Both the position numbers and the translations under genes were made by a program. Below, one piece after another: positions 7,045 to 28,049 of a stretch of 34,571 nucleotides of DNA (the stretch's first letter is position 1; each line of letters starts with the position of its first letter). The stretch is from a virus. Its lineage: Duplodnaviria; Heunggongvirae; Uroviricota; Caudoviricetes. Under the pieces are notes generated by a model. That model made no database searches. It was not told where the DNA came from and worked only from the letters and a program-made list of their open reading frames with translations. The stretch lies in the IMG/VR virus record IMGVR_UViG_2713896785_000021, one strand, 5' to 3'.

Positions 7045-8235
7045 TTAATTGCTGTTAACCGAGGTGACCAGATTTGCCAGGTATTTATCGGTAATACGCT
7101 GGCGCAGGGTCAGGTTTTCGAGAGGAGGCACCGGGGTATAGTCGTAGTCGATATACAGTTTTCCGGCCTTGAGGGTTTCCGCATCGTTGGATTCTTCGCT
7201 GAACCAGCAGGTCGCATCCACGATATAGCCGTTTGTTTTCAGCTCACGAAATTTGGCATTGATGCCGTCAACGATGTCGTGAATCAGCGTTGCGGTGATG
7301 GGCTTGTCCACCGCCCACATGTGCGCCTCAGCCATCGTGTCGGCCAGCACCTGCGCGGTGCGGGTGTAGTTTTCAAAGAGGAACAGCGGGTCATCGGAGC
7401 AGGTACGGTTACCCCAGAAGCGGAAACCGTCGCGGCGAATCAGCGTAGTGACGCCTGACTCGTTAAGCAGGTCAGCATCGGTGCCGGACTCCTGCAAATC
7501 CCAGAAGACGGATGCGCTGATGCCGGTAACACCGTTTACCCCGACGTTGGACAGCGTTTTATGCCAGCCCTGCTCCTGGTCGATTTTAGCGCGCAGACCC
7601 AGCGCACGGGCGGTGGCATACGCGGTGGCGGTGGTACTGGTGACCGTATCCCATGCGAGGAAATCCGGCCAGATGACCATCAGCTCACGCTGGCTGAAAT
7701 TCTGGCGGTAGGCTTTCACCTCGGAAATGGTCTTACAGCCCCATGCGCTGATATATCCGAAAGCGCGCAGCTTCTGACAGACTGATGCCAGTGCAACAGC
7801 CACCTCTTTGGTGTCCAGTCCCGGCACGCCGAGAATACGCGGTTTAACACCGGTTACCGACTCCGCCGCCAGCAGGGCTTTCAGTCCGGTGTACTGACCG
7901 TTTTCGTCGGTGGTGCCGATGATATTGGAAACGGTCTGCGCAAGTTTCGTTTCTTCGTCTTCGCCGGTGCCGTCTTCCACACGTACAACAACGGTGACCG
8001 GTTTTGACTGGTCAGCTATGGCCTGCAACGACGCCGCCAGCGTGCCTTTTTTACCGGCCTTTGCAATTGCGCTCTGCACATTGGTAATCAGCACCGGTTT
8101 ATTGAGGGGAAAGGTTTCCGCATCCGCATCGCTGGCCGTGCAGACCATGCCGACAATGGCTGTGGATACGGTGGAAATGACGCGGGTGCCGTCGTTAATC
8201 TCCAGCACCTGCACGCCGTGATGATAGTCACTCAT
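7045..8235 (-). CDS. FI: Contractile tail sheath protein gpFI, 396 aa
   Basis: Length and position match P2 FI; translation begins MSDYHHGVQVLEINDGTRVI as in P2-like sheath proteins. Confidence 0.9.
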   Translation of the reverse strand: MSDYHHGVQVLEINDGTRVISTVSTAIVGMVCTASDADAETFPLNKPVLITNVQSAIAKAGKKGTLAASLQAIADQSKPVTVVVRVEDGTGEDEETKLAQTVSNIIGTTDENGQYTGLKALLAAESVTGVKPRILGVPGLDTKEVAVALASVCQKLRAFGYISAWGCKTISEVKAYRQNFSQRELMVIWPDFLAWDTVTSTTATAYATARALGLRAKIDQEQGWHKTLSNVGVNGVTGISASVFWDLQESGTDADLLNESGVTTLIRRDGFRFWGNRTCSDDPLFLFENYTRTAQVLADTMAEAHMWAVDKPITATLIHDIVDGINAKFRELKTNGYIVDATCWFSEESNDAETLKAGKLYIDYDYTPVPPLENLTLRQRITDKYLANLVTSVNSN

Positions 8236-8328
8236 CCGTTTAACTCCGTGGTTAATGGGTGCAACTATTTTCTGTTGTGCAGAGCATGAGACGCTATTTG
8301 ACCTGGCTGGTCAGTGGATGAAACAACA

Positions 8329-8357
8329 GATAAAGAAAATGCGGGCAATTCGCCCGC
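8329..8357 (-). terminator. Rho-independent terminator (GCGGGCGAATTGCCCGC hairpin followed by a U-rich tract on the minus strand) downstream of the cargo gene 8565..9158
   Basis: Inverted repeat gcgggcaattcgcccgc with minus-strand ATTTTCTTTATC tail, seen in sequence. Confidence 0.5.
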
Positions 8358-8564
8358 CTGTCCTGATTTGTACACACTCATTTTCCGACTGACAGTTTAC
8401 ATAGCCCAAAAGTTATCAAATCTGACAGTCTGCTTTGAGCAAGAAGCGGACATTTGCCTGTCAGGGTATATGCCGCTCTGCGGTTATTATCCAGAATCAA
8501 TAATTCATCTGAGCTGGATTACATATAAAACATAGTTACCCCATGAATAACCATTAGCAGATTA

Positions 8565-9158
8565 TCAATTATGTAAATCTTTTGTTTTATGTTCTTTAGC
8601 GTGTTGTGATAATAAATAGCTATAGCGTTTAAGCAAAATATTAGAAAGATTAAGCTCATTCATGAAGTGTTCTTCTAATAAGTAACCATCAATATCAACT
8701 TTAATATCATTACCACTTTTCATCTTCTGTAACGTAGATTTTACACGCTCCAGCAGGATGCTTTGCTCATGGTAATAGTCCATAAGAAGAGTAACATCCT
8801 CTTTATCAAGCTTACTTAATTCGCTGAAGTATGATTTAAACACTTTATCAGTCTGGTTTAATGCAATCTGTAAGCGAGGTCCCCCTGATGATTTGACATT
8901 AATGGCAAAAGGCTCGCCAACAAAATGCTCCGAATTTTCGTCAAAGCCAATATTTCTCGTTTTATCAAGAAAGGTGAGAGCGCGATGGTTATTAGCGATT
9001 TCATATGCAAACATTGTTCTGATACTGTCTCTCTCAGCCTCCATGCTTATATCATCACGATGATTTGTATAAAATATATTTCCAGCAAAGAGAACCATAG
9101 CAAGAATCACTGAACTTGCCTCCCAGTTAATATTTTTTAATCGTCGCTTAGTAAACAT
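8565..9158 (-). CDS. Hypothetical AT-rich membrane-anchored protein, 197 aa, one N-terminal TM helix, cargo at the P2 Z/fun position
   Basis: Clean ORF with AAGGTG Shine-Dalgarno; strongly AT-rich codon usage against GC-rich tail genes; hydrophobic segment SSVILAMVLFAGNIFYT near the N-terminus; no domain I recognise. Confidence 0.6.
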   Translation of the reverse strand: MFTKRRLKNINWEASSVILAMVLFAGNIFYTNHRDDISMEAERDSIRTMFAYEIANNHRALTFLDKTRNIGFDENSEHFVGEPFAINVKSSGGPRLQIALNQTDKVFKSYFSELSKLDKEDVTLLMDYYHEQSILLERVKSTLQKMKSGNDIKVDIDGYLLEEHFMNELNLSNILLKRYSYLLSQHAKEHKTKDLHN

Positions 9159-9235
9159 ACCGCACCTTAATTATCAAAAATATTCCTTCAGTGTTATCTG
9201 GTTAGCCTAAACCAAATCATTAAAGTCCGCAGGAT

Positions 9236-9264
9236 ATCATATACATAAAATGTATTGTTTAGAA
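9236..9264 (-). promoter_or_regulatory. Putative sigma70 promoter for the cargo gene (-35 TTCTAA, 17-bp spacer, -10 TATGAT on the minus strand)
   Basis: Hexamers read directly from the AT-rich intergenic region upstream of 9158. Confidence 0.3.
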
Positions 9265-9379
9265 TTTGCACTAATAAAATAATGCTTTACTAAAATCTAC
9301 TCCAGACACAGAGCGGCCTGTCAGATTAGGCTTTACTCTGTGCCATAGATATGTAATCTCACACCAGAGCTTATACAAC

Positions 9380-9907
9380 TTATTGCGGCATTTCCGGCCA
9401 TTCAGGATTTGCAGGATCCACACGGCTGACCAGAACGCTGTAGCGTTCCCATGCTTCCAGTCGGCTGCGTTCCTCATCTGTTGCCATATTCAGCCTGACA
9501 GCGCGCTCCAGCGGCAAAATCACGGATTCGGCTTCGGAAAGCAAAGTTGCCTTTTGTGATTCTGCCAGTTGCTGCTGTTCGTCTGCCGTATAAATCCGCT
9601 TAATCACGGCACCATCCTTAAACATCCATTTACCTGAGTCATCAGCACGTCGGTTGGCAGTAATATCAGGAACCTCGACAACGCTAAAACCTTCAGGGTT
9701 AAGCGTTGAAGCATCTCGGGTGATGCCGACAATTATATTATTCTCGTCGTAAACAATCTTTATTGTGTCTGACTGAAAGTTCTTCACTTCCTCATACCAG
9801 TTTTTCCCGTCTTCAGTGTAAAGCCAGATGACTCCATGCTTCTTTGTTAACTCATACTGTTCCAGTGTTTTAACGTTACCCGCTTTTATGTTCTTTAAGT
9901 GCATCAT
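9380..9907 (-). CDS. G: Tail fiber assembly protein gpG, 175 aa
   Basis: Length and position immediately downstream of H match P2 gpG. Confidence 0.85.
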
Positions 9908-9908
9908 A

Positions 9909-12105
9909 TTAAACGCTCGCTACATTATACCATGTGCCATTTATATACTTTTGAACGGGTCTGTAATAAACACCCGCAATATTATCGGCGGAGTTGGAAC
10001 CTGTATCCTGAACATTTATACCAGACAATACATGACCTGAAGGGCACTGAAAGTTCCATGTTTGCCAGTTGTTCACACCATAATATTGCTGTGAGCCAAG
10101 CCGAACATCTTTCACATATCTGGAATCAATGTTATCCCAGTTGCTTGGTTGTATCTGACCGTTTACAGCAAATATCACCGAGTTATCTGTATTTCGCTGA
10201 CTATAGAAATGCCAGCCTGAATCATCACCAAGCTCTGCAACAGTTGGTCTTGACGAATTTCCCCACAAGTTAAATGATGCATTACGGGCAGCGGTATTTG
10301 CACTTGAAAGTGTGAATAACTTACTTTCCCCAGCTTGAATACCTTTTAATGATATTGCTGAGCCATTTTTAAAGCGGAATACATGCACACCATTAGCATA
10401 AGCATCCAGCACCCCATCACCATTTTGTTTAAACCCAGTATCGTTATCTCCTAAAACTATTGAATTCCCCCCCAGGGCATTAACCGTTCCAATCCCCAGA
10501 TTTCCGCTAAAAATGGCATTAATACCGAATATTGAGTGAGAACAATAAAACCCTCGCCCATTGTTAAAATCCAGAATGGCTTGTGCGTTCGTGCTTTCTG
10601 TCGCGGGATTAGTTGCTCCCCACTTATATGTTGTTTGACCGACGGTATAATCCTGAGTTGGAACAATAACCGTTAGCCCTTCTTCGGCAAAAACTCGCAC
10701 AGGAAAAGCCCTGCCTTCAACGTAAAAAACGCTGCATACATCATCTTCTTTCAGGCTTGTTACAATGGAATGGATTGCGCGCTCATTAGTCTGATATGTC
10801 GAAAAATAACCTGCTGCATATGAACCACGATCAGTCCAACCTCCGGGCATTACCATTCCATTAAATTCGCAGTTATTCATTGCGTAATCACCACCGGCAG
10901 ATGTGGTTGTAATAACCACTCTGGAAGCCAGTTCGCCAGTGCTACCAGTGGAACGCCGGAAAATAACTGGATACCACTTTCCACCAACAGCATTAGACGG
11001 CGCGTTAAATACGTACAGCCGCATTCCTTTTTTCTTATCCACCTCGCCTTTGCTGTAAACATTAATGTTACTCAGGAAGCGATCTTTATCAGGAATATCC
11101 GCGCCGTTCTGATCTTTCTGAAGACGTTTTTCAGCATTGTCATAGGCAGACTTCACCGCTTTTGGTGTTGCAGCCAGCGTTTCAGAATCACTGTTGGTGG
11201 CGCTACTGAGCTGGACAAGACCTTTTCGCGCTGTGGTGGCATCCTGTGCAGTGTATTTCCCGTTAGCAAGGTCATACGCTGTCTTAACCGCCTTTGGCGT
11301 TGCCGCAAGCGTTTCAGAATCGCTGTTGGTGGCGCTACTGAGCTGGACAAGGCCTTTTCGCGCGGTGGTGGCGTCCTGTGCAGTGTATTTCCCGTTAGCA
11401 AGGTCATATGCTGCTTTTACCGCTTTNNNNNNNNNNNNNNNNNNNNNNNNNNNNNNNNNNNNNNNNNNNNNNNNNNGCAGTGTATTTCCCGTTAGCAAGG
11501 TCATATGCTGCTTTTACCGCTTTTGGTGTTGCGGCGAGTGTTTCAGACGTGCTGTTGGTCGCACTGCTTAACTGAGTAAAACCTTTGGCGGTCAGCGAGG
11601 CGTCCGGGTGACGTCGTGACTGTTCATGTTCTGCAATTTTGTCATCAACGTAATCCTGCGTTGCCATCACCGTTGTGGTGTCAATGGTCAGCGCCACTGA
11701 GGCCACACTGCTGACGATGATGACCATGCGGCAGGTCTGCGAACGCCCTGAGCCTTCGGCAAGAGCTGGCTTATAACTTTCAGCCATGTTCGCCACGGCA
11801 ATTAACGTTCCAGCATCATCGTACAGGCCAAGCTCACGCATCCAGAAACCGCCCACCTCCGGCGGAATAACCAGCTCTGCGATAATATAATTACTGTTTC
11901 GTTTGTCCTGGCTGATTTTGTTCAGCGCATGTCGCCAGACTTCGTGGATAAGCCCGGTCTGTCCGGCATCCGGGACAGGCAATTTACCACCGCCATCCCC
12001 GACGGCCATCGTGGTAATGTTGACCTTCCGCCCTCCCGGCGCGGTTGCCGCTGCCAGCTTTGCTGCACCAGCAGTGGTGATAACGGTTCTGAATTTTGTG
12101 CTCAT
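9909..12105 (-). CDS. H: Tail fiber protein gpH, interrupted by a 50-N assembly gap, with internal tandem repeats
   Basis: N-terminal part (11404..12105) matches the conserved P2 gpH N-terminus ([25 protein letters not shown]...); the C-terminal part continues after the gap; true length and frame across the gap are unresolved. Confidence 0.8.
11150..11600. repeat. Tandem ~120-bp coding repeats (40-aa unit ...[44 protein letters not shown]...) inside gpH, at least 3 copies
   Basis: Near-identical 120-bp units at about 11157..11276 and 11277..11396, with further copies flanking the gap. Confidence 0.75.
11427..11476. other. Assembly gap (50 N) inside the gpH repeat array
   Basis: Run of N characters in the sequence. 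Confidence 0.99.
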
Positions 12106-14614: not shown

Positions 14615-15400
14615 ATGTTCAGTGATAATGTGACTAATGCGTGGTGGTTTATCTCTTTGTATCTATTTTTATTAATAGCATTAACATTTATTACCTTTGG
14701 TAAAAGTAATCTTATGAGGTTTATTGCACATCATTTCAATTTTGAGTATTCAGACAGAAAGTTAAAAATGCTCGACAAAAAATGGCGCGACATTCAACTA
14801 TTTAAAATAATTAACGGAATCAATGTATCAGGCATCGAAGATGTGAGAATGATACAGCAGGGGCTGATTGATGGAAAACTAAAAACATCGTATTTTTTTC
14901 TTACTCGCTTCTGGGGTGACATAACAAAACCACCACACATAATTAAAACAATAATTGTAATTCTGTCCAGCATTATTTATATTCTCTTCGCATGTTATAT
15001 ACACAACAAACAATCCGTTATAGTAAGAGATGCCATAGGCATACCATATAAAAATATGATGTACTATGTTTATAGTGACAAAGTTCTTTTATCCTTCAAC
15101 AATAAAACAGTTGAATTCAATAAAACTTATAGCCTTGCCGATTGCAAGAGGCTACGAAACCTATTTATAAAAGACACACTTCCTGAGATCGCCTGCAATA
15201 AGCTCTTACAGCTAAACGAGGAGGACTCGGAATGGTTAAGTCAGGAGATTAAAGATAATAACAGCCAAAAAAAAGCATTATTAATAATATCCCTCATCTA
15301 TTTCATTTCAGGTCTGGTTATATTCCTGTCATATACAAAATTCCTTTACGCCAATAAGAAGGTTGTAGAATACAAAGCATCAAATAAAAATCACTCATAA
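14615..15400 (+). CDS. Hypothetical AT-rich integral membrane protein, 261 aa, about 3 TM helices, antisense cargo between V and S (orf30 position)
   Basis: Strong GAGGAGAG Shine-Dalgarno before the ATG; very AT-rich (Asn/Lys/Ile-rich); hydrophobic helices at about aa 9-28, 109-129 and 232-250; opposite strand to all flanking late genes; no domain I recognise. Confidence 0.6.
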   Translation: MFSDNVTNAWWFISLYLFLLIALTFITFGKSNLMRFIAHHFNFEYSDRKLKMLDKKWRDIQLFKIINGINVSGIEDVRMIQQGLIDGKLKTSYFFLTRFWGDITKPPHIIKTIIVILSSIIYILFACYIHNKQSVIVRDAIGIPYKNMMYYVYSDKVLLSFNNKTVEFNKTYSLADCKRLRNLFIKDTLPEIACNKLLQLNEEDSEWLSQEIKDNNSQKKALLIISLIYFISGLVIFLSYTKFLYANKKVVEYKASNKNHS

Positions 15401-17344: not shown

Positions 17345-17842
17345 TTAAGCTGGTACACCGCCGGCGGTACGCCAGACGGTGACCAGTTTTTCCAGTGAAT
17401 GCTCACGCTGACCGTAACCGGCACCCGGCAGGGACGCCCAGATATTGCGACAGCGTGAAATGGCGCGCTCAATGCGTCCCGCCCGGATGTCATCCAGTGC
17501 ACCGCGTTCGCGGATCAACTGAATGGCAAGTCTGTCCTGTGATAACGGACTGAAATCCGGCAGGGCAAGCTGTTTGCGGTAATGCGGCCAGAACAGGTAA
17601 AGTTGCTGATAGCGACCGGAGGCCGTGGATTTTTCACCGCGACGGTTAAACACCTTCGCCGGTCGGCCATGTGCGAACGGGTGGTCACTGTAGTCGGTGA
17701 AAATTTCCGGCTTCCCGTCCAGTCCGGTGACTATCACGTCATAGCCCCGGTTTTTCGTCAGCGGATGATTCGCCGTCCCTTCGGACACGGCCAGCATGTC
17801 GAGAAAGGCGGCGATATTCTGATGCGTGTTAATTACCGGCAT
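17345..17842 (-). CDS. K: Endolysin gpK (lysozyme), 165 aa
   Basis: Length and position match P2 gpK. Confidence 0.88.
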   Translation of the reverse strand: MPVINTHQNIAAFLDMLAVSEGTANHPLTKNRGYDVIVTGLDGKPEIFTDYSDHPFAHGRPAKVFNRRGEKSTASGRYQQLYLFWPHYRKQLALPDFSPLSQDRLAIQLIRERGALDDIRAGRIERAISRCRNIWASLPGAGYGQREHSLEKLVTVWRTAGGVPA

Positions 17843-24994: not shown

Positions 24995-26863
24995 TTATCG
25001 CCATTCTTGAGAATAACTTGCGTCAGACGATCTCGGACCGGGTACAGCAGGGTGAATTGAAATTCTTACGGGTATATTAAAAGCAGCACCAAACGCTATT
25101 GCATCTCCTCTTGGAAGCCCAGAAATCTGCCGAATCATTAACTCATTTCCACTTTCCATCGCATACCGTAAAGTCTGCAAATCACGCTCATTTGTCAGGC
25201 GCAACGAAAACCAATTTGCACACATTGCTAATACTGTTGATGAAAGCTCTGATGGTCGTTGTGTGCTCACAATAAGTGAACATTTAAATTTACGCCCTTC
25301 TTTAGCAAGTCTTTCATAAGCTTTAATTTGAGCATCAACTTCAGAATAAGGATCTCTTAAATAGTGGTGCGCCTCTTCAAGAAGTAACACGGTTGGAAAA
25401 GCTTTGTTTTGCCCCCTAAGAAAGAGAACTTCAGCAAACATTTCTAATAATGCACTTAACAGCATTGGAGCATGATCTTGTGAAAGATGCTTAAAATTAA
25501 CAATATGAATATTCCAGTCATTCTCCTCTCCCTTTTCTTTACCAAAGAAATAATCAACTTCCTGTCTCATAGCTAATTCCCAATGTTTGCCATCACTTAA
25601 TAATTCACCACCTCCATTTAAATCAACAACATACTTGAATCTAGAATCCTCTGATAACTGTTGAATTATCTTAATCAATGGCAGAACATTACCATAGCTA
25701 AAAGCATCTCGTTTACTAGATCCAGCTTTTCGCGAATCCGCCGCCACGCAACCAAACTCCGCAACCAAGTTAGCAATACTTTTAAACGGCGGCCATTTAT
25801 TTGCCTTACACAGCATCCCTCTTCTTAAGAAACTCAACCACGCAGATAAAAGCTCTTGCCCTTCATCTCTACAATCATCAAAAATATTAAATACGCCCCC
25901 TACTTCATCCTTAAGAAAGAATGAATCATCGGAAAAATGAACACTATTTATAGCATTAAGCGCATTTCTTAATGCAGGTAATTGTGTCTTATCACTAGGG
26001 CGTAGTAATTTTATCAACCCAGCAAATCCCAATGCTTGATAAGGTATTTTTCTATAGTAGTAATGTTCATTCTCAGAAAATATATCTCCTTTCTGTAGAG
26101 GTGGTTTTGGAAACTCTCCTTTTGGTAACTCACCTAAAATAGTATGTTTAACATTAGCAACACCTTCAAAAGCCTGAGAATACTCGCCATTAATATCAAA
26201 AATTACTATTCTTGCATTAGGGTACTGTTCTGAAATGCGGCGTGTAAGTAAAGCATTAAAATTAGATTTACCATATCCAGTACTGCCCAAAACAGCCATA
26301 TGCCTGGTTAGTAATTTATCAATGCTAGCTAAAATTTTAACTGATTTAGTCCTCGAATCTATTCCTAACTCAATTGCTTTATCCAGATCATTTTTATCAA
26401 TACTATATACGATATTTAAAAAATCAGATGTTAACGGGACAGCGGATGCTCCCAGAGCAGGTAACCTCCAGTCTTCCGAAACAAACACACATCCATCTAT
26501 ATCTCGTCTAATAAAACCTATTGCATAGGCTATTATTTGCCTTAACGGCATATCTGCTATATCTGATGTACCTATTTTTGCCTTATGTGCTTTATCAGCC
26601 TCGACAAATGCCATATCTGTAACTCGAGCCACAACCAGAATATTTCCGGCATCAAAACCGATCAAATCTCCAGGCTGAGTAACAGAACTAACACCATCCC
26701 TATGAGAGGCGAGCCTACCTTGCAATCCTTCATGAAGATTTATCCTTATTTTTTCGCCCTCCAGACCAACGACATACCCAATAGCAGATAATTCAGATAG
26801 TTTAAAATGCGACATTCCCTTCCCCTTTAGACAATTTAGAAATAGCTTCAACCAAGTCATCAA
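24995..26863 (-). CDS. herA: HerA-like (FtsK/HerA superfamily) ATPase, about 606-622 aa, partner of the SIR2 protein
   Basis: Walker A (GSTGYGKSN), Walker B (LLLEEAHHY) and TQRP motifs; AT-rich. An alternative start at 26815 (MSHFKLSEL..., preceded by GGGGAAGGGA) overlaps the SIR2 stop by 14 nt. Confidence 0.8.
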   Translation of the reverse strand: MMTWLKLFLNCLKGKGMSHFKLSELSAIGYVVGLEGEKIRINLHEGLQGRLASHRDGVSSVTQPGDLIGFDAGNILVVARVTDMAFVEADKAHKAKIGTSDIADMPLRQIIAYAIGFIRRDIDGCVFVSEDWRLPALGASAVPLTSDFLNIVYSIDKNDLDKAIELGIDSRTKSVKILASIDKLLTRHMAVLGSTGYGKSNFNALLTRRISEQYPNARIVIFDINGEYSQAFEGVANVKHTILGELPKGEFPKPPLQKGDIFSENEHYYYRKIPYQALGFAGLIKLLRPSDKTQLPALRNALNAINSVHFSDDSFFLKDEVGGVFNIFDDCRDEGQELLSAWLSFLRRGMLCKANKWPPFKSIANLVAEFGCVAADSRKAGSSKRDAFSYGNVLPLIKIIQQLSEDSRFKYVVDLNGGGELLSDGKHWELAMRQEVDYFFGKEKGEENDWNIHIVNFKHLSQDHAPMLLSALLEMFAEVLFLRGQNKAFPTVLLLEEAHHYLRDPYSEVDAQIKAYERLAKEGRKFKCSLIVSTQRPSELSSTVLAMCANWFSLRLTNERDLQTLRYAMESGNELMIRQISGLPRGDAIAFGAAFNIPVRISIHPAVPGPRSSDASYSQEWR

Positions 26864-28049
26864 CAGTATTTTCTCTTGGGAACAACACCGGATAAGGAAG
26901 ATGTTTCACAAAACTATCAAAGTAAGCATCTGCCCCCCCACCCACGATAGTCACTTGATTGAATTGCATATTTTTTAAAGCATCAATTGCCTTTTCACCT
27001 TCAGAAGCAACGCCTCTACTAACTTTATCTAAAGCATTCTCCAGATCAGGGTAATAAATAACAACATGAAATGACGGATTTAACAAAGCACCAAAAACAA
27101 TTCTGTTTATATGATAATCACCAAACCCAAACCCATTAATAAACAAAGCGGTTTGAGGTTTTGACAAAAACTCGCCAAAACGTCTAAACATTTCACCGTA
27201 AACAAAACCAATTGTATGGCTATATTTATTAGCCCCCGGATAAATTAAATGTTGACCATAGTAAAAACCGTCACCATTAATAATATTTTTAATGTAATTA
27301 TCATATGCCTGAGATGCACTTATCTCATTAACTATTAAAAAATCATCCTGATACCATGTAAGAGAGCCATGCAATTTATATAGATAAGCGTGATAATGAC
27401 CAAATCTAGCCTCCCCTTTTGCATTGACATTTCTAAATGCCAAATCAAAATTTTGAGGATAAAATTGTCTTGTATGCAATCCTGAAAAACCATTAAATAG
27501 CTGAATTCCTAAATCTTCAGCTGCCCACTCTAATGCCAAATCATAGTTGGTAGTAAAAAGTGCCGGAGCCGATTGTCCCGGCTGCCTATTTGAAATCAAC
27601 TTTGAAATTAATTCTTTATGAGACTTAAACTGTTTTTTCTTCCCTTGATTTTTACAACCAAACTCTTCTCCAGTTAACAATGCAGCCTTTGTTACTTGTT
27701 TATACAAAGCACTTAATATTAAACTAATTTCTTTTTGTTCGTCTTCATTACGTCTTGTTTTGGCCACAGACAAGAATTTAGTTACTTCATCAATTAGAAG
27801 CTCAACATTAACTATATCTTGTTCAGATTCAGTTTTGTCAACCAATAAGTATTTTTCTAGTAACAAATTCAATAGATCAGGATGTTCATATTTAAAAAAC
27901 TGCCATACCTGCTTCATAGTTTGGCCGCCACATCCGACCGATGCTCCCGCGCCTAAAAGAACCCCTACATTATCCAACTGACATAACGAATAAAGATGAG
28001 AATAAAAATCATCTTCAGATATTATCTTACCACCTTGATAAATAACCAT
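26802..28049 (-). CDS. SIR2-family (SIR2_2-like) NAD+-dependent effector protein, 415 aa
   Basis: Gly-rich Rossmann motif GVLLGAGASVGCG, then TTNYD and HGS motifs typical of defence-associated SIR2 domains; AT-rich; AGGGA Shine-Dalgarno. Confidence 0.8.
   Translation of the reverse strand: MVIYQGGKIISEDDFYSHLYSLCQLDNVGVLLGAGASVGCGGQTMKQVWQFFKYEHPDLLNLLLEKYLLVDKTESEQDIVNVELLIDEVTKFLSVAKTRRNEDEQKEISLILSALYKQVTKAALLTGEEFGCKNQGKKKQFKSHKELISKLISNRQPGQSAPALFTTNYDLALEWAAEDLGIQLFNGFSGLHTRQFYPQNFDLAFRNVNAKGEARFGHYHAYLYKLHGSLTWYQDDFLIVNEISASQAYDNYIKNIINGDGFYYGQHLIYPGANKYSHTIGFVYGEMFRRFGEFLSKPQTALFINGFGFGDYHINRIVFGALLNPSFHVVIYYPDLENALDKVSRGVASEGEKAIDALKNMQFNQVTIVGGGADAYFDSFVKHLPYPVLFPRENTVDDLVEAISKLSKGEGNVAF

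Follow-up and report, generated by a model that had tools for sequence, protein, structure and literature searches.

ORF197, a predicted membrane-anchored cargo protein in the Z/fun slot of a P2-like prophage of Escherichia coli and candidate exclusion factor

The stretch of DNA analyzed here (the 34,571 nucleotides of IMG/VR record IMGVR_UViG_2713896785_000021, hereafter the window) is a P2-like prophage of Escherichia coli, and the present work concerns one of its genes, an open reading frame (ORF) of 197 codons named ORF197 (Table 1), around which the window is 100% identical to E. coli strain 2013C-3264. Taken together, the evidence supports the view that ORF197 encodes an autonomous, selected and envelope-located cargo protein that keeps company with defense genes on phage-related mobile elements. 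On balance, we lean towards some kind of function directed against phages or other mobile genetic elements (MGEs). More specifically, we favor a block to genome entry of the superinfection-exclusion (Sie) type, because the best conserved parts of the protein are located at the membrane and at the predicted periplasmic tip, and we give this mechanism somewhat less than an even chance. The locus itself, and the idea that defense cargo occupies the Z/fun slot, are already known.

The coding sequence of ORF197 has a GC content of 34.5%, compared to 56.6% for the neighboring sheath gene FI and 50.7% for the whole window. Since stops would represent about 7% of random codons at this composition, an ORF of this length would arise fortuitously with a probability of only about 1e-6 to 1e-7 (estimated from the composition). 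The Shine-Dalgarno sequence of the gene belongs to a block, TTTTTGATAATTAAGGnG, that is also kept in the aligned copies from Pantoea and Enterobacter. Furthermore, pairwise dN/dS values are comprised between 0.06 and 0.2 wherever dS is not saturated, i.e. the protein is under purifying selection and is therefore used. ORF197 is evidently a real gene, because it combines this selection with full-length homologues. A previous sequence-only reading, made by a model from the letters and a list of ORFs, had described a strongly AT-rich gene of 197 codons in the P2 Z/fun slot, between the sheath gene and the tail-fiber assembly gene, had regarded it as variable and non-structural cargo, and had attributed to its product one N-terminal transmembrane (TM) helix and no recognizable motif. 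All these points are borne out by the results given above and below.

On the minus strand, the genes succeed one another in the order H (ending at 9909), G, ORF197, FI (sheath) and FII (tube). The V-to-G late operon ends with G and the F operon begins with FI, so that the slot is that of Z/fun in the P2 annotation. This slot is a second defense-enriched locus of P2, and three validated systems were found there (Vassallo et al. 2022, PMC9519451). Comparison of the window with the G-to-FI region of P2 by BLASTN indicates that the backbone homology stops at position 9307 and resumes at position 8450; the DNA in between (34.1% GC) is therefore specific to the cargo. Like other cargo of the Z/fun hotspot, it is variable, does not belong to the backbone, and is located between G and FI with conserved P2 sequence on either side. 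ORF197 has the same orientation as the late genes, whereas fun(Z) of P2 is annotated as antisense to them. The sequence-only reading had proposed an autonomous unit embedded in the late operon: the autonomy is in keeping with the occurrence of the gene as a lone module on many elements, but its position is between the V-to-G and F operons and not inside a late operon.

ORF197 matches PHROG 3829, a family of unknown function, over its whole length (E 6.6e-135, residues 1-197 to positions 1-197 of the 197 of the profile), and this was the only PHROG retrieved. Many members of the family are labeled "lysogenic conversion protein" at NCBI. Therefore, the suggestion of the sequence-only reading that the gene was previously undescribed does not hold, even if neither label comes with a function. 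No Pfam domain was matched by ORF197, and for 27 family members the Pfam matches were isolated, weak and scattered. No family of PADLOC-DB 2.0.0 (including the PD-T4, PD-lambda and PDC sets) was retrieved at E<=1, the NCBIfam scan returned nothing meaningful, sequence searches of the PDB with two profiles yielded no match with an E value under 0.08, and the literature search found no paper mentioning PHROG 3829 or testing the gene. Although catalogued, the family thus has no function assigned to it, and the defense databases searched do not include it.

The family is very small. An exhaustive profile search of 1.84 billion representative proteins retrieved only 28 proteins at E<=1e-3, and a word-indexed search of 5.8 billion proteins retrieved 38 clusters, those with an organism name all belonging to Enterobacterales (Escherichia, Pantoea, Pluralibacter, Salmonella, Kosakonia and Enterobacter); the full-length ones have about 195 to 207 residues and are at least 57% identical. 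The whole cassette is present in 201 of the 5,426 complete E. coli genomes, in 1,019 of which the flanks of the slot were matched, and ORF197 is found in 13 sequenced records of P2-like phages. G, ORF197 and FI occur with fixed spacing in 29 of 31 IMG/VR loci; the ORF is intact with 197 codons in 27 of these 29, has 212 codons in another one and is cut by the contig end in the last one. A closer-alignment search for the locus in species-representative genomes detected only two loci. A plasmid origin of ORF197 was considered and rejected, as the gene is carried by only three of 72,556 plasmid records.

All the relatives examined stand alone on mobile or variable elements, and no partner gene recurs among them. 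These relatives were found: (i) in P4-like satellites of Pantoea ananatis and Kosakonia, where they immediately follow the primase gene, (ii) at the moron end of a Salmonella lambdoid prophage, (iii) on the IncFII plasmid CP033467 of Enterobacter cloacae, next to IS91, (iv) on an AlpA island of Pantoea, (v) on a contig encoding a resolvase and ParB, (vi) on a plasmid-like contig encoding ParA, (vii) in the tra region of a conjugative element, (viii) on an integrase-proximal island, and (ix) in a chromosomal islet of Proteus mirabilis beside ahpCF. The plasmid homologue was called with 161 residues in the source; the actual frame is full-length, with 197 codons from a TTG/GTG start. The position occupied in the P4-like satellites is a minor defense hotspot of P4 (Moura de Sousa et al. 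2026). Moreover, known defense systems directly adjoin the relatives in three cases, in line with the idea of defense cargo. At the end of the Salmonella lambdoid prophage, a type II methyltransferase and a restriction endonuclease are encoded directly downstream (E 3e-182 and 4e-178). On the ParA contig, LmuA and LmuB of a Lamassu system are divergently adjacent (E 9e-154 and 1e-249). In the third case, the TIR candidate PDC-S66 (full-length PADLOC match, E 2e-112) is encoded beside an integrase gene, 39 bp upstream of the relative. This last relative is a distant member of the family, with 218 residues and a C-terminal CxxxxC.

The hydropathy profile of ORF197 displays one hydrophobic segment, residues 13-31. 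The N-terminal tail (residues 1-12) carries a net charge of +4 and the 15 residues that follow the helix a net charge of -3, and the positive bias of the N-terminus holds across the family. This predicts a single N-in, C-out signal anchor followed by a periplasmic domain. A cleavable signal peptide was considered unlikely, as no conservation of small residues is seen at positions -3/-1 and no other part of the protein is as well conserved as the helix. Addition of distant homologues (27 sequences in the alignment) raised the mean predicted local distance difference test (pLDDT) of the AlphaFold2 model from 66.5 to 82.5, with a predicted TM-score (pTM) of 0.71. The model consists of a continuous helix 12-66 (TM segment and stalk), an extended loop 67-91 and helices 92-100, 105-116, 119-148 and 151-186. 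The predicted layout is therefore a basic tail (1-12), a TM helix (13-31) and a helical stalk with a four-helix bundle (32-186); the protein contains no catalytic motif. Conservation is highest in the TM helix (mean entropy 0.47; N11, W12, E13, S16 and N27 invariant) and second highest in the loop 67-91 (RNIGFD...GEPFA...G.RL), which in the model would be located at the membrane-distal tip. This pattern suggests that the protein makes specific contacts both within the membrane and in the periplasm.

These data are most simply explained by a factor acting at the envelope, because about 12 residues only would be cytoplasmic, no enzyme domain is present and the best conserved parts would be in the membrane and at the periplasmic tip. 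In the mechanism that we favor, ORF197 would be the sole gene of a small mobile cargo cassette of the P2 Z/fun hotspot. Its product, made in the lysogen, would be a bitopic inner-membrane protein whose short basic N-terminus remains cytoplasmic, whose TM helix serves as anchor and whose remaining 165 residues or so are periplasmic. Acting at the envelope, the conserved TM helix and the distal loop would engage either an inner-membrane or periplasmic component of the host or the DNA-delivery apparatus of the incoming phage, and genome entry would be blocked ahead of any cytoplasmic step. It should be emphasized that we infer the expression in lysogens, the periplasmic orientation and the exclusion mechanism. 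The data do show the gene, the selection acting on it, its movement as a stand-alone unit and its recurrence in defense hotspots, and its architecture is predicted. A more detailed version appears possible and rather doubtful: ORF197 might be a single-protein module acting against phages or MGEs at the periplasmic face and carried by a hairpin-bounded cassette of about 0.9 kb. Equally tentatively, the distal loop of this module might intercept the DNA-delivery machinery while the TM helix holds a membrane partner of the host, the module being shuttled between P2-like phages, P4-like satellites, plasmids and islands of Enterobacterales.

The same hotspot, the same defense neighbors and the conservation of the TM helix, with its invariant Asn, Ser and Glu residues, could also fit an abortive-infection effector that senses an envelope perturbation or a phage product, oligomerizes through its TM helix and depolarizes or permeabilizes the inner membrane, so that the cell is killed before phage release. 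The distant relative located 39 bp downstream of the gene of a TIR protein would agree with such an effector, as arrangements of TIR with TM effectors have been described (Rousset 2022). However, the N-in/C-out topology would leave about 12 cytoplasmic residues, so that a TIR-type cytoplasmic signal could not reach the bundle. Furthermore, the TIR neighbor occurs in only one context and is a stand-alone candidate, no partner is conserved, and one TM helix offers little on which to build a regulated pore. We therefore regard this effector as quite unlikely.

The genetic contexts also bear on a third explanation, in which ORF197 would be a lysogenic-conversion or host-fitness factor unrelated to phages, for example an immunity or protection factor against an envelope toxin (bacteriocin or contact-dependent effector) or an envelope modulator. 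The label given by NCBI to the family would agree with it, and the cargo of P2 hotspots also includes non-defense genes such as those of partition systems and cytolethal distending toxin. Immunity proteins are commonly helical, periplasmic and anchored in the membrane, and the high conservation and purifying selection of ORF197 fit a conserved host or toxin target. In addition, one Pantoea copy is about 4 kb from a gene encoding an Rhs toxin with SUKH immunity genes, and the Proteus copy is in the islet beside ahpCF. However, no experimental basis was found for the NCBI name, a toxin gene is not regularly found in the vicinity, the family is carried mostly by phages and their satellites, and three of the contexts other than P2 adjoin anti-phage systems. 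Overall, a function of this kind seems unlikely, and more so than the exclusion of incoming genomes.

The comparison of cassettes indicates how ORF197 may move. The segment shared by the window, the Pantoea island and the Enterobacter plasmid is bounded by 24-bp palindromic elements, which are also found on either side of unrelated cargo in P2 and P2-EC58. Features named "left inverted repeat" and "right inverted repeat" are annotated there in GenBank AJ512683, the latter covering the region of the right-hand element of the window. The left-hand element is decayed in the window and intact as GTCCGCT-yTGTGCCAnn-AGCGGAC in P2, P2-EC58, Pantoea and the Enterobacter plasmid. This distribution suggests that the palindromes (GTCCGCT-N10-AGCGGAC) are a site of cassette exchange. 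The DNA common to the window and to the Pantoea and plasmid copies extends over about 170-260 nt upstream of the gene, including TTTTTGATAATTAAGGnG, and about 140 nt downstream; a second upstream block, TATATGATAT, is found in the Pantoea copy only of these two. The satellites and the lambdoid prophage share only the coding region with the window. Furthermore, the cassette is associated with two alleles of G, about 74% and about 90-94% identical to that of the window (IMG/VR loci L029-L057) and with only about 74% identity between them, and therefore the hotspot cargo and the adjacent host-range module recombine independently.

Transcription of ORF197 is less straightforward than had been proposed. 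The sequence-only reading had assigned to it an intrinsic terminator and a promoter of its own. The terminator-like hairpin and its T-tract are real, but they cannot be attributed to the cassette: as they are kept in P2 and P2-EC58 despite different cargo, we count them as conserved P2 backbone. This hairpin probably insulates pF from upstream transcription, and a transcript of ORF197 would end there, 207 nt past the stop codon. The counterpart of the activator-binding site of pF is located directly downstream of the hairpin and is part of the late promoter of the F operon, not of the cargo. As for the proposed promoter, it is unproven because it is absent from the output of the consensus scan and because its TATATGATAT block, kept in the Pantoea island copy, is deleted in the Enterobacter plasmid copy, whose upstream region has lost about 95 nt relative to the Pantoea one. 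An alternative promoter given by the scan (9197..9170) was considered unlikely, its -10 element ending 2 nt before the conserved Shine-Dalgarno sequence. Compared to a typical moron, ORF197 thus has the atypical composition, a terminator that is present but belongs to the P2 backbone and a promoter that is only a candidate. Nevertheless, the upstream DNA shared with other elements, and the satellite copies located behind the strong terminator of the primase gene, support indirectly that the gene may bring its own expression signals.

The terminator scan and RNA folding detected no canonical terminator between the stop codon of G and ORF197, and late read-through from the V-to-G operon into ORF197 is therefore possible. 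A stable hairpin without U-tract is located just downstream of G (about 9310-9345, minus strand, GGCACAGAG...CTCTGTGTC), inside the stretch that BLASTN identifies as common to P2 (9307-9420), and is overlapped by the left-hand palindromic element; its candidate roles are those of an RNA 3' end stabilizer, a weak terminator or a recombination site. Read-through would suit an accessory function in the lytic cycle, such as the tuning of lysis, a block to re-adsorption or injection by the progeny, or superinfection exclusion restricted to lytic growth. Such a function would account for the orientation of ORF197 along the late genes, unlike fun(Z), and for a transcript that would end at the backbone terminator before pF. 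An N-in TM helix followed by a periplasmic helical domain also resembles i-spanins and the T4 holin T. However, relatives are also encoded in satellites, downstream of a strong terminator, as well as on plasmids, within a tra region and in chromosomal islets that lack a late operon, and P2 already has a full lysis cassette. The cargo is also dispensable, as it is present in about 20% of the 1,019 E. coli genomes that match the flanks, and the ORF list includes no embedded ORF for a lipoprotein partner. These arguments make a lytic accessory function highly improbable. The spanin or holin reading in particular was rejected as weak, since no embedded or adjacent lipoprotein ORF was detected and the gene is present in elements without lysis genes.

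Several observations weigh against the superinfection-exclusion hypothesis, and those on two lysogens are the main argument against a broad defense role. Lysogens of the phages SIDE7 (OU784746) and AC1 (OV192280), which both carry ORF197, were previously obtained in E. coli C (Rousset et al. 2022). Only the AC1 lysogen was protected, against lambda and LF82_P8, and the cloned TIR locus of AC1 reproduced the protection (Rousset et al. 2022). Since this locus accounts for the protection of AC1, no effect can be attributed to ORF197, and the defense role proposed by the sequence-only reading finds no support in these two lysogens beyond the TIR system of AC1. The phages used were lambda, T4, P1, 186, CLB_P2, LF82_P8, AL505_P2 and T7, i.e. 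a panel without T5-like phages. In addition, ORF197 displays no similarity to any known Sie or defense family (Pfam, PHROGs, PADLOC and hhalign) and the predicted fold is generic. Its co-orientation with the late genes allows a purely lytic expression, the promoter upstream of it being only a candidate, and proteins engaged in a direct arms race with phage ligands are not typically so well conserved in sequence.

Other features of the prophage were also noticed. A SIR2 gene (26802-28049) and a HerA gene (24995-26863), both on the minus strand, form a pair in the main A-Q (old/tin) hotspot; they match the PADLOC SIR2-HerA profiles (E 3e-188 and 7e-272) and correspond to a known defense system, whose presence in this other hotspot speaks, with the location of ORF197, for the exclusion hypothesis. 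An ORF of 261 codons (14615-15400, plus strand, opposite to the late genes) lies between V and the tail-completion genes, at a position which we take to be that of P2 orf30. It has no match in PADLOC and only a sub-threshold one to DUF6535 in Pfam, and it may be a further uncharacterized cargo. Lastly, a run of 50 N (11427-11476) masks part of the tail-fiber gene H, and the sequence around this run (about 11150-11500) codes for a unit of about 45 residues repeated in tandem. The coordinates of the features related to ORF197 are given in Table 1.

Table 1. Features of the ORF197 locus in the window and at related loci (L numbers refer to loci other than the window)
Feature	Coordinates	Strand	Basis or remark
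ORF197 coding sequence	8565..9158	(-)	197 aa; ORF list, full-length PHROG 3829 match
Shine-Dalgarno sequence AAGGTG	9163..9168	(-)	4 nt ahead of the ORF197 ATG; sequence
Tail-fiber assembly gene G (upstream flank)	9380..9907	(-)	Pfam Caudo_TAP E 3e-35; RefSeq annotation of the same locus
Tail sheath gene FI (downstream flank)	7045..8235	(-)	RefSeq annotation of the homologous locus; P2 map
Cassette-specific DNA without P2 counterpart	8451..9306		BLASTN vs P2 G-to-FI region
Right-hand 24-bp palindromic boundary element, GTCyGCT-yCTyGCTCAA-AGCAGAC (here GTCCGCT-N10-AGCAGAC)	8428..8451	(-)	Sequence comparison
Left-hand boundary element, decayed (GGCCGCTCTGTGTCTGGAGTAGAT)	9295..9318	(-)	Sequence comparison; RNA fold
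Intrinsic-terminator-like hairpin, GCGGGC-GAAT-TGCCCGC then ATTTTCTTTA	8331..8357	(-)	Terminator scan; present in P2 and P2-EC58
Counterpart of the annotated P2 pF activator-binding site, TGT-N12-CCA	8303..8328	(-)	P2 annotation 17555..17583 mapped by alignment
Candidate promoter TTCTAA-N17-TATGAT	9236..9264	(-)	Proposed by the sequence-only reading; absent from consensus-scan output
24-bp palindromes, Pantoea island	L006 5785-5808, 6709-6732		Sequence comparison
24-bp palindromes, Enterobacter plasmid CP033467	L014 5784-5807, 6606-6629		Sequence comparison
24-bp palindromes, other loci	L004 836-859; L002 223-246, 1874-1897		Sequence comparison
ORF197 homologue, Enterobacter plasmid CP033467	L014 5893-6486		
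Type II methyltransferase and restriction endonuclease, Salmonella lambdoid prophage	L010 7040-9188		
Lamassu LmuA and LmuB, ParA contig	L023 2372-5247		
TIR candidate PDC-S66 and distant ORF197 relative	L016 5090-5962, 6001-6657		

ORF197 is present in about one out of 27 complete E. coli genomes and in about one fifth of the Z/fun slots that can be detected by their flanks, and no database assigns it a function. If its role in exclusion or defense is confirmed, a compact mechanism, enzyme-free and facing the periplasm, would join a catalogue in which cytoplasmic nucleases and NADases predominate. The protein would also help to explain the differences in phage resistance among similar strains, which is relevant to phage therapy, and would provide a tractable means of studying the passage of DNA across the periplasm from contractile or other tails. 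If the protein is not defensive, it would be a counter-example to the annotation of genes according to the hotspot in which they are found. The conserved 24-bp palindromes found at the borders of the cassette, whether in phages, plasmids or islands, also bear on the exchange of cargo in P2 hotspots.

The exclusion hypothesis can finally be compared with known systems. Fun(Z) of P2, which the sequence-only reading had put forward as a precedent, is likewise a single-gene, AT-rich and non-essential cargo of the slot between G and FI, annotated in P2 as a lysogenic conversion gene blocking T5. The precedent is valid for the slot but not for the protein, since Fun(Z) has 528 residues compared to 197, is encoded in the opposite orientation and has no similarity to ORF197 (hhalign probability 0.06%). 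The gp15 protein of HK97, encoded by a moron located between tail genes and followed by a terminator, is also small and N-terminally anchored in the membrane, and it is reportedly expressed from the prophage and blocks DNA entry. It differs by its size (62 residues), by an almost complete lack of extramembrane domain, by its sequence (hhalign 0.4%) and by the phage family that carries it. SieA of P22, a prophage-encoded inner-membrane protein of similar size (162-164 residues), is sufficient to block DNA injection, by interfering with the trans-envelope ejection conduit (PMC10883804). However, it is predicted to span the membrane three times and carries a conserved cytoplasmic motif, instead of one TM helix and a predicted periplasmic bundle, and the two proteins have no PHROG or Pfam family in common. 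Sp and Imm of T4 are small membrane-anchored proteins that stop DNA injection at the periplasmic face (PMC11436027); they are much smaller than ORF197, belong to a lytic phage and have no Pfam or PHROG similarity to it. A similar architecture is that of the 4HB_MCP chemoreceptors and sensor kinases (Tsr, Tar, PcaY and PilJ), in which a TM helix runs into a periplasmic four-helix bundle. ORF197 has neither the second TM helix nor the output domain of these receptors and does not belong to the 4HB_MCP type; according to the model, it would be like the sensor domain of a chemoreceptor held in the membrane by its first helix alone.

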